The translations under genes were made by a program, and so were the position numbers. Source: a virus (lineage: Duplodnaviria; Heunggongvirae; Uroviricota; Caudoviricetes). From it: a stretch of DNA of 4,160 bases. Positions within the stretch are counted from its first letter, which is position 1, and each line of letters begins with the position of its first letter. The stretch covers positions 1 through 4,160 of the IMG/VR virus record IMGVR_UViG_2778261122_000002, one strand, 5' to 3'. The notes below the pieces were generated by a model. It was not told where the DNA came from. It worked only from the letters and a program-made list of their open reading frames with translations, and did no database searches. This document shows positions 1,803 to 4,160 of the stretch, piece after piece.

Positions 1803-1958
1803 TGGTAGCTAAATCATTAATTAGCTACAAAATGCATCATTTTTATTTATCTCATTGATATGTATATATTTATCGATAAAATATTTTTAGCTGTTCTGTG
1901 ATTAAGCTAAATATTAATGCTAATTAATGCGTTAGCACAATGTGTGGATCACGACCAA

Positions 1959-1985
1959 TAAAAAAGGCCGCACTTCTGTGCGACC
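1959..1985 (-). terminator. Intrinsic terminator immediately downstream of cI
   Basis: On the minus strand: GGUCGCAC, loop AGAA, GUGCGGCC (8-bp stem with one G-U pair, + 1966-1985), followed by UUUUUUAUU. It begins 5 nt after the cI stop codon. Confidence 0.68.
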
Positions 1986-1990
1986 TTTCA

Positions 1991-2707
<717 letters not shown>

Positions 2708-3146: not shown

Positions 3147-3417
3147 CGAGGCTCTACGAATCGAGAGTGCGTTGCTTAACAAAATCGCAATGCTTGGAAC
3201 TGAGAAGACAGCGGAAGCTGTGGGAGTTGATAAGTCGCAGATCAGCAGGTGGAAGAGGGACTGGATTCCAAAGTTCTCAATGCTGCTTGCTGTTCTTGAA
3301 TGGGGCGTCGTTGACGACGATATGGCTCGATTGGCACGACAAGTTGCTTCAATTCTCACCAATAAAAAACGCCCGGCGGCAACCGAGCGTTCTGAACAAA
3401 TCCAGATAGAATTCTGA
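3124..3417 (+). CDS. cII: CII transcriptional activator, 97 aa
   Basis: MVRANKRNEALRIESALLNKIAMLGTEKTAEAVGVDKSQISRWKRDWIPKFSMLLAVLEWGVVDDDMARLARQVASILTNKKRPAATERSEQIQIEF matches lambda CII. The ORF-track start at 3064 is an upstream extension; the ATG at 3124 gives the native 97-aa length and has a purine-rich SD-like stretch (TAAGGAAA, 3108-3115) upstream. Confidence 0.95.
   Translation: MVRANKRNEALRIESALLNKIAMLGTEKTAEAVGVDKSQISRWKRDWIPKFSMLLAVLEWGVVDDDMARLARQVASILTNKKRPAATERSEQIQIEF
3364..3388 (-). terminator. oop-type intrinsic terminator, antisense within the 3' end of cII
   Basis: On the minus strand: GCUCGG, loop UUGCCG, CCGGGC, then G and UUUUUU (+ 3364-3388). This corresponds to the terminator of the lambda oop antisense RNA. 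Whether an oop RNA is actually made here is uncertain because the promoter region is altered (see findings). Confidence 0.5.
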
Positions 3418-3611: not shown

Positions 3612-4160
3612 GTTAGCTGATTACAGGCCTCAACTGGAGGTCGTGGAGCATCGCGTGGCAGATACCGAAGATGGTTTCATGCGCGTTGCTAACGAGATTA
3701 CCGACAGTCTGCTGATGGCTGATTTAACCGTCCGGCAGTTGAAGGTGATGCTCGCTATCATGCGCAAGACATACGGATTCAATAAGCCGATGGATCGACT
3801 CACAAACACGCAGATAGCAGCCATGACAGGTATTCATCACACTCATGTTTGCGCTGCCAAGCGCCAGCTTATTGAGCGTAAATTCCTCATTGCTGATGGC
3901 GTGAAAATCGGAGTGAACAAGGTGGTTTCTCAGTGGATTATCCAGGACAGCTTAACATTAGCTAAAACAGCTAATAAAACATTAGCCAAGTCGGCTAATG
4001 GGTATAAGCCAAGTCAGCTAAACACAAAAGACAATATACAAAAGACAATAAATACAAATACCCCCTTACCCCCTAACGGGGGCGGCGATGGGCAGGTTAA
4101 ACCTGAACGTCGCAAGGCAGAACGAATCGACTACGAATCCTTCCTGAACGCCTACAACAC
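3598..4160 (+). CDS. Replication initiator, lambda O-like (5' partial; continues beyond window end)
   Basis: ATG at 3598 with SD AGGAG at 3586-3590; the frame stays open to the window end (187 codons). MGVVKLADYRPQLEVVEHRVADTEDGFMRVANEITDSLLMADLTVRQLKVMLAIMRKTYGFNKPMDRLTNTQIAAMTGI... aligns with the lambda O N-terminal domain (lambda: ...DLTKRQFKVLLAILRKTYGWNKPMDRITDSQLSEITKL), clearly homologous but divergent. Iterons and an AT-rich ori lie inside the coding sequence, as in lambda O. Confidence 0.88.
   Translation, partial: MGVVKLADYRPQLEVVEHRVADTEDGFMRVANEITDSLLMADLTVRQLKVMLAIMRKTYGFNKPMDRLTNTQIAAMTGIHHTHVCAAKRQLIERKFLIADGVKIGVNKVVSQWIIQDSLTLAKTANKTLAKSANGYKPSQLNTKDNIQKTINTNTPLPPNGGGDGQVKPERRKAERIDYESFLNAYN
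3957..4022. repeat. ori iterons: three 19-bp palindromic repeats on a 23-24 bp period inside the O-like gene
   Basis: ATTAGCTAAAACAGCTAAT (3957-3975), ATTAGCCAAGTCGGCTAAT (3981-3999) and ATAAGCCAAGTCAGCTAAA (4004-4022). Each has dyad symmetry (TTAGCY...RGCTAA); a possible degenerate fourth copy lies around 3945-3956. Confidence 0.7.
4023..4061. other. AT-rich DNA-unwinding-element-like segment of the putative ori
   Basis: ACACAAAAGACAATATACAAAAGACAATAAATACAAATAC, containing a tandem CAAAAGACAATA repeat (4025-4036 and 4039-4050), immediately followed by a GC-rich block CCCCCTTACCCCCTAACGGGGGCGGCG (4062-4088). This iteron, AT-rich, GC-rich order mirrors lambda ori. Confidence 0.5.

Follow-up and report, generated by a model that had tools for sequence, protein, structure and literature searches.

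A predicted intrinsic terminator after cI probably sets a P63C-domain gene apart from the repressor unit in a lambda-type immunity region

The 4,160 nucleotides analysed here (the whole stretch, hereafter "the window") make up the immunity region of a lambdoid E. coli prophage with lambda immunity, in which cI, cro, cII, N, OL and OR are all of the lambda type (Table 1). Its flanks are 96-98% identical to lambda, HK544, HK542 and HK97, and the cI DNA is ~97% identical to that of lambda and HK544, with the stop codon (TGA, 1993-1991) followed directly by a second in-frame TGA (1990-1988). The interval from the cI stop to the Timm-like terminator had no match among 50,697 phage records, low-stringency searches included, and neither did the cargo DNA (810-1995) when compared with the same records in distant mode. 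Among 5,426 complete E. coli genomes, two, each of them ST131, have a near-identical locus; ST131 strains 4993 and MB1159 carry this prophage.

Table 1. Features of the window in order of position.
Feature	Position	Strand	Details
N	1-405	minus	
pL and OL1-OL3	540-620	minus	promoter TTGACA-17-GATACT 584-556; operator half-sites 558, 602; from annotation of homologous records
Timm-like intrinsic terminator	773-800	minus	CCCGGC-CTCAGC-GCCGGG (800-783), then TTTTCTTTGC
Cargo gene, 311-aa P63C-domain protein, in the rexAB slot	810-1745	minus	Shine-Dalgarno GGGGGA 1754-1749
Predicted sigma-70-type cargo promoter	1773-1802	minus	-35 TTGCCC 1802-1797, 18-nt spacer, -10 TATCAT 1778-1773
Proximal palindrome TAGCTAA-N8-TTAGCTA, putative operator	1806-1827		abuts the -35 hexamer
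Distal operator-like boxes	1888-1937		TTAGCT 1888-1893; AGCTAA 1905-1910; palindrome TGCTAA-N8-TTAGCA 1918-1937
Predicted intrinsic terminator after cI	1957-1989	minus	stem 1985-1978/1973-1966; loop 1977-1974; U tract 1965-1960, then AUU
cI repressor gene, lambda immunity type, 237 aa	1991-2704	minus	Pfam Peptidase_S24 and HTH_3
OR, cro, cII	right of cI		
oop terminator	3366-3393	minus	
Replication gene, non-lambda O	rightmost part of the window		

The cargo gene that occupies the place of rexAB (ORF 1745-810) encodes 311 residues, as initially proposed, and RefSeq annotates the same ORF (WP_021552633.1). Residues 183-269 match the P63C domain (Pfam PF10546; score 81.6 bits, cut-off 26.1), and the protein falls into phrog_2384, a group of unknown function. 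Comparisons with PADLOC, NCBIfam and PDB sequences gave no meaningful relative, PPR hits contained no significant stretch, and the protein is not of the BstA family (no PADLOC match). Downstream, the region 700-800 is found at 90-97% identity in 113 phage records, including lambda (35730-35824), and its counterpart is annotated as Timm in EF120455-EF120459.

At the other end of this interval, the minus strand carries a hairpin directly after cI. Beyond the last bases of the gene (...TTTGGA TGA) come TGAAA (1990-1986), GGTCGCAC as the first arm of the stem, AGAA as the loop, GTGCGGCC as the second arm, then TTTTTT and ATTGG. Six G-C pairs, one A-U pair and one G·U wobble (T1983·G1968) form the core stem, which can be extended to 12 pairs, six of them G-C, by pairing GAAA (1989-1986) with UUUU. 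The initial annotation had described a "perfect-looking" hairpin here, beginning 5 nt past the cI stop, in which 8 bp of stem close an AGAA tetraloop and a U6 tract follows: these elements and their coordinates agree with our reading of the minus strand and the anatomy is canonical, but the stem is short of perfect by its one G·U pair.

Energetically, the cI hairpin (core -13.3 kcal/mol, extended -18.0 kcal/mol) can be set beside the oop terminator (core -9.7, extended -17.2 kcal/mol) and the Timm-like hairpin (core -11.4), and a terminator scan placed it level with the oop terminator. In a 61-nt context, it reached -27.3 kcal/mol (z = -5.9), and none of 200 shuffles was equally stable. Under strict terminator criteria (stem ≥8 bp with ≥6 G-C pairs, loop of 3-8 nt, ≥6 T in 8 nt), exactly two sites were retained in the window, the oop terminator and the cI hairpin, while 300 dinucleotide-preserving shuffles yielded none. 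The locus thus combines a G+C-rich stem with a short loop, a U run directly after it, and a position at the end of a co-oriented gene, as known for intrinsic terminators, and its sequence indicates that the hairpin is probably a functional Rho-independent terminator closing the cI transcription unit. The lambda oop terminator is an element of the same class with a similar stem energy and the same tail, but with another stem sequence and location, and it ends a small antisense RNA rather than the repressor mRNA.

The tail common to these two terminators is an identical 12-nt sequence, TTTTTTATTGGT (1954-1965 on the minus strand for the cI hairpin). Many 7-bp variants of the hairpin found elsewhere continue with TTTTTTATTGG, which may be a coincidence or a preferred terminator tail. 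An Rfam search returned no match except a sub-threshold one to the Salmonella sRNA STnc320 (window 1956-1997, + strand; E = 0.68, 22 bits where the gathering score is 50), which most likely reflects how terminators resemble each other.

Similarity of the window to lambda, HK244, CL707, HK544 and mEp332 breaks off with the cI stop codon itself. These phages have their next gene 22-122 nt past cI, and no terminator is annotated or detectable between cI and Timm, the records of HK244, CL707, HK544 and mEp332 having been deposited with full regulatory annotation. The scan of lambda itself recovered Timm and pLit and nothing between cI and rexA, and hence provides both a positive and a negative control. 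The lambda cI-rexA-rexB operon, which runs from pRM/pRE to Timm with an internal pLit, fills the same cI-to-OL/pL slot in the same orientation as the cargo of the window, and the two regions have a Timm-like terminator, cI, OR and OL elements in common. However, rexAB follows cI in lambda without any terminator and is transcribed with it, whereas the window has a canonical terminator, a 213-nt AT-rich putative promoter region and an unrelated P63C gene.

Both rexAB of lambda and bstA of Salmonella prophage BTP1 are co-transcribed with cI, and the cI-N interval is a mosaic hotspot (PMC7067206, PMC8585504). The bstA gene resembles the window cargo as an accessory gene placed directly downstream of the repressor in this hotspot, but it is driven from the cI promoter (Owen et al., 2020, 2021; PMC7067206), whereas the window cargo is no relative of BstA and has a terminator upstream. 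We had also considered a separate promoter for bstA, an idea rejected on the published account of the cI promoter (PMC7067206). A cargo lying close to cI with no intervening terminator, as in a cI-cargo operon, is not what the window holds, since 245 nt and a terminator separate its two genes.

Other occupants of the slot were noted in E. coli prophages. TW14425 (locus L007, 2512-2519) has a distant P63C homologue (29% identity) in the same slot with no terminator, its start overlapping or closely following the cI stop, which suggests that the P63C superfamily is found in both operonic and autonomous forms. In elppa10 (locus L008, 1609-2370), a gene 31 nt past a lambda-type cI encodes a KilA-N protein that matches the BstA profile (E = 2.5e-20), which supports the slot as a defence hotspot. 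The cargo of WCHEC040047 is likewise close to cI.

Between the hairpin and the cargo gene of the window, the spacer (1746-1958) is AT-rich (25-30% G+C), as the initial annotation had stated, and contains neither a CI operator half-site nor a credible ORF. The proposal that the cargo has its own promoter in this spacer found a candidate in the hexamers TTGCCC-18-TATCAT, whose position is kept in 13 P63C cassettes. This predicted sigma-70-type promoter matches 9 of 12 consensus positions in a blind scan, would start transcription near 1766, and has a further AGCT box (1779-1782) overlapping its -10 element. Consensus promoters are not enriched across the window (5 sites against 7.8 expected in shuffles), so that the call is based on positional conservation. 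On the opposite (+) strand, a promoter-like site, TTGATA-16-TAAAAT (1855-1882, 10/12 matches), points to the hairpin and cI; its position is not conserved among homologous cassettes.

To describe the leader across relatives, we used P63C homologues of ~80% identity collected by protein similarity, all of which have an AT-rich leader of ~200 nt with 3-8 TAGCTA-type boxes. Alignment of 13 cassettes over the 108 nt that precede the start codon revealed three boxes with invariant GCT/AGC(T) cores and the consensus order TAGCTAA-N8-TTAGCTA, TTGACA or TTTACA, 17 nt, TAAnnT over an AGCT box, and a Shine-Dalgarno sequence, with the full TAGCTAA/TTAGCTA reading in most, not all, of them. The TTGCCC of the window is the weakest -35 element among the aligned cassettes, which suggests that its promoter may be weak or may need an activator.

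The two palindromes in the leader of the window share one geometry, with 111 bp between their centres, and within them 1808-1825 pairs with 1919-1936 at 89% (inverted repeat I1). Such paired palindromes suggest a dimeric DNA-binding protein, possibly acting with looping. TAGCTA itself occurs four times in the window (0.8 expected) and TTAGCTAA-like motifs eight times (2.35 expected). Given an arrangement that is conserved in homologous P63C cassettes, the TAGCTA-type boxes are probably operators.

A cluster of TTAGCTAA-like repeats also lies at 3958-4021, inside the non-lambda replication gene; these are probably origin iterons, and they resemble the leader boxes. We considered whether the TAGCTA boxes could be origin iterons held in common with the replication gene, and rejected any general connection of this kind: in the near-identical ST131 prophage, whose replication module is a different one, these repeats are confined to the leader. 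Chance probably accounts for the resemblance.

Some P63C cassettes adjoin LexA-box umuDC-like operons or structural genes, with neither cI nor the hairpin alongside, which argues that the leader belongs to the cargo and the hairpin to the cI side. At six loci (L033, L034, L046, L038, L039 and L048), the P63C gene is divergent from a LexA box (CTGT-N8-ACAG) and umuD/umuC-like genes, and no immunity region is recognisable. Two other P63C subfamilies have different palindromes, GCAAGCAT and TGCACGT, around predicted promoters in an equivalent position, again also outside cI contexts. The type of motif thus tracks the P63C subfamily, which is consistent with autoregulation. Mapping operator specificity to the P63C N-terminus was not supported, as the three subfamilies differ along the whole protein.

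Turning to the hairpin, a search with the spacer identified four more E. coli prophages that carry an identical hairpin and T tract after cI, with a ParA-family gene as cargo; in the alignment, the similarity between these prophages and the window stops right after the T tract. The exact 8-bp hairpin was found only in E. coli prophages and IMG/VR contigs: it occurs nine times in IMG/VR, always after a cI-type 3' end and with only P63C or ParA-like cargo, and had no match in GTDB at one genome per species. A 7-bp version, GG(T/C)CGCA-GA(A/G)A-TGCGGCC-TTTT, is present in 119 IMG/VR stretches, usually after a cI-type end or decayed cI remnants, and the genes downstream fall into at least 16 clusters, among them P63C (47), ParA-like (24), a ~175-aa family (10) and a ~235-aa family (6). 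The annotated genome of ST104, a P22-like prophage of S. Typhimurium DT104, shows the same pattern: its HK022-type cI is followed by two decayed remnants of a cI 3' end, then by the hairpin (L282, 2501-2518) and the P63C gene orf23. The hairpin is, by these comparisons of sequence, a conserved junction common to different cargo cassettes, a point absent from the initial annotation.

Several observations accompany this junction. In ST104 (L282, 2424-2500) and in many of the loci L051-L169, the hairpin is separated from an unrelated repressor gene by one or two decayed ~30-nt lambda-type cI 3' ends, which look like traces left by repeated recombination in this part of cI. The same 22-nt hairpin was also seen outside immunity regions (L124, L105, L127, L140, L163), one example being a site immediately before a prohead protease/capsid gene; the sequence may have spread, or may have originated more than once as a terminator. 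The ParA-like cargo (L010, 2782-3005; also L011, L012, L054 and L078) has a leader of another kind, with ~5 direct repeats CTCCTGC/ACCTGC and, in a second ParA-like type, TGGTAAAC...GTTTACCA palindromes; these look like partition-type or autoregulatory sites within the immunity region. No consensus promoter was found in the ParA-like cassette by the scan used for P63C.

Natural variants of the stem include U·G to C-G, one paired C-G insertion (the extra pair of the window) and free variation of the loop, and the hairpin is visibly decayed in L047. No double compensatory substitution was seen among these few variants, in which MAFFT places the extra C-G out of structural register. Since most of the loci were retrieved with the hairpin sequence itself, conservation of the hairpin is partly by construction and the evidence from covariation is weak.

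The frequency of the arrangement was estimated with the conserved cI 3' end as bait, which gave 114 loci with enough downstream sequence among the matches listed (61 distinct tails). Four of these 114 lambda-type cI ends carry the hairpin. The distance from the cI stop to the next ORF (naive calls of at least 80 aa) is 188-303 nt at these four loci and has a median of 80 nt at the loci without the hairpin, again among the matches listed (one-sided Mann-Whitney p = 0.006). Within this sample, a terminator and a long leader go together, as a minority arrangement.

Outside the repressor operon, a second point of reference is provided by morons, which are reportedly (the concept being ascribed to Juhala and Hendrix, 2000) autonomous accessory units of lambdoid phages with their own promoter and terminator; lom and bor are examples. 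Like these, the cargo of the window is a single accessory gene with a promoter-like region and its own downstream terminator (the Timm-like hairpin with a T-rich tail), and it is present or absent between close relatives, its flanks being 90-98% identical to lambda, HK544 and HK542. Unlike typical morons, it carries an array of operator-like TAGCTA boxes and lies in a slot of the immunity region whose documented occupants, rexAB and bstA, are driven by the repressor promoter. In a comparison system from another phage family and another locus, unrelated accessory cassettes are likewise swapped rapidly between conserved flanks; one flank here is a short conserved terminator hairpin, and a defence role is for P63C a candidate only.

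Taken together, these comparisons lead us to favour, with a probability of roughly 75%, a reading in which the hairpin ends the cI unit and the P63C gene forms a separate, self-promoted, moron-like unit closed by the Timm-like terminator. The separation of cI from the cargo by the hairpin had been the central proposal of the initial annotation, and what it predicts at the level of sequence holds and is supported by comparison with other loci. Transcripts from pRM, and from pRE during establishment, would end at the hairpin. According to established lambda biology, antitermination by N acts through nut sites; as the pRM and pRE transcripts have none, it should not apply to them, and pL points away from the cargo, so that no lytic promoter reads into it. 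The P63C gene would instead be transcribed from its own sigma-70 promoter among the TAGCTA-type boxes and end at the Timm-like terminator, which would make its expression largely independent of pRM autoregulation. Some read-through from pRM into the cargo is likely, since intrinsic terminators are rarely complete.

Control of this separate P63C unit would probably be exerted by a protein binding the TAGCTA boxes, most economically the P63C protein itself, the only candidate that the cassette encodes. At the two borders of the unit, the cI 3' end with the hairpin and the Timm/OL segment may then act as conserved linkers, giving the homology for recombinational exchange of cassettes that bring their own promoter.

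The main alternative, which differs from this reading in degree and not in kind, casts the hairpin as a leaky terminator or mRNA stabiliser, protecting the 3' end of the cI mRNA and attenuating pRM/pRE, while the cargo is still fed in good part from the repressor promoter and any promoter of its own is minor or conditional. The poor -35 hexamer of the window (TTGCCC) is consistent with this, as is the use of the cI promoter by other cargo of the slot (PMC7067206), and the four extending A-U/G·U pairs would use up part of the U tract and could lower efficiency. Against it, the hairpin and its U tract are at least equal to those of the efficient oop terminator, with the same tail TTTTTTATTGGT, the cargo promoter region is kept where no co-oriented gene lies upstream, and a 245-nt AT-rich gap is atypical of operonic cargo (median 80 nt among the matches listed). 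We consequently regard a cargo fed in good part from the repressor promoter as unlikely, while giving it some weight.

The hairpin could also be no more than a recombination junction or relic, a boundary sequence carried along with decayed cI 3' ends and of no important role in transcription. Its exact sequence is indeed conserved across very different flanks, tandem decayed cI 3' copies precede it in ST104 and at many IMG/VR loci, and similarity between cassettes stops at the T tract. A role as junction is however compatible with termination, and a relic would be expected to decay, as in L047, whereas the variants observed preserve the helix (U·G to C-G, the paired C-G insertion, a freely varying loop), which points to selection on structure; moreover, the T tract is always kept on the correct side, and helix and U tract are maintained where the flanks have decayed. 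This makes a relic without function very improbable. Equally hard to credit is a two-way insulator, in which the hairpin would also stop + strand transcription from the 1855-1882 site and shield cI from antisense RNA: that site scores 10/12, there are A/T runs on either side of the stem and the hairpin also forms in the folded + strand RNA, but UUUCAUCAU, all that follows the + strand stem, makes a poor U tract, and homologous cassettes do not keep the antisense site in the same position.

Returning to the favoured reading of a terminated cI unit and a self-promoted cargo, it is tempting to speculate further, although we would not expect this to prove right, that GGTCGCA[C]-loop-[G]TGCGGCC-Tn with the last cI codons forms a "docking" linker in lambdoid and P22-like Enterobacterales prophages, behind which self-regulated, insulated single-gene cassettes are swapped. 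If so, these cassettes would include the three P63C subfamilies with their cognate operator arrays, the two ParA-like types and others, and their insulation from the repressor promoter would reflect products, for example those of autoregulated defence or exclusion genes, that need control independent of the lysis-lysogeny switch. By analogy with the aba element of BstA, the repeat arrays might then double as DNA-based self-immunity or decoy sites.

Overall, the hairpin has the form of a standard intrinsic terminator and the cargo that of a standard moron, so that the mechanism is ordinary and the arrangement uncommon. Our literature search found no paper describing such insulated cI-slot cassettes, a recurrent hairpin boundary or P63C repeat arrays. 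What is new is modest and threefold: in a small minority of phages, insulated, self-promoted cassettes appear to fill a usually cI-operonic slot, their upstream boundary is repeatedly one and the same short hairpin, and the P63C family is accompanied by cognate repeat arrays.

The cI-to-N interval is a classic site of prophage lysogenic conversion and defence genes, and the working assumption derived from rexAB and bstA is that genes in this slot are on in lysogens and tied to CI autoregulation through the repressor promoter. In a minority of lambda-type immunity regions (~4/114 among the matches listed), a canonical cI terminator is followed by cargo with its own predicted promoter, which suggests that the timing of cargo expression may differ and extend beyond stable lysogens, and that operon predictions for these prophages should be revised. 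Among the cis elements, the terminator, the promoter and the putative TAGCTA operators lend themselves to direct tests, and the locus would thus offer a handle both on the uncharacterised P63C family and on the exchange of cassettes at short conserved linkers.
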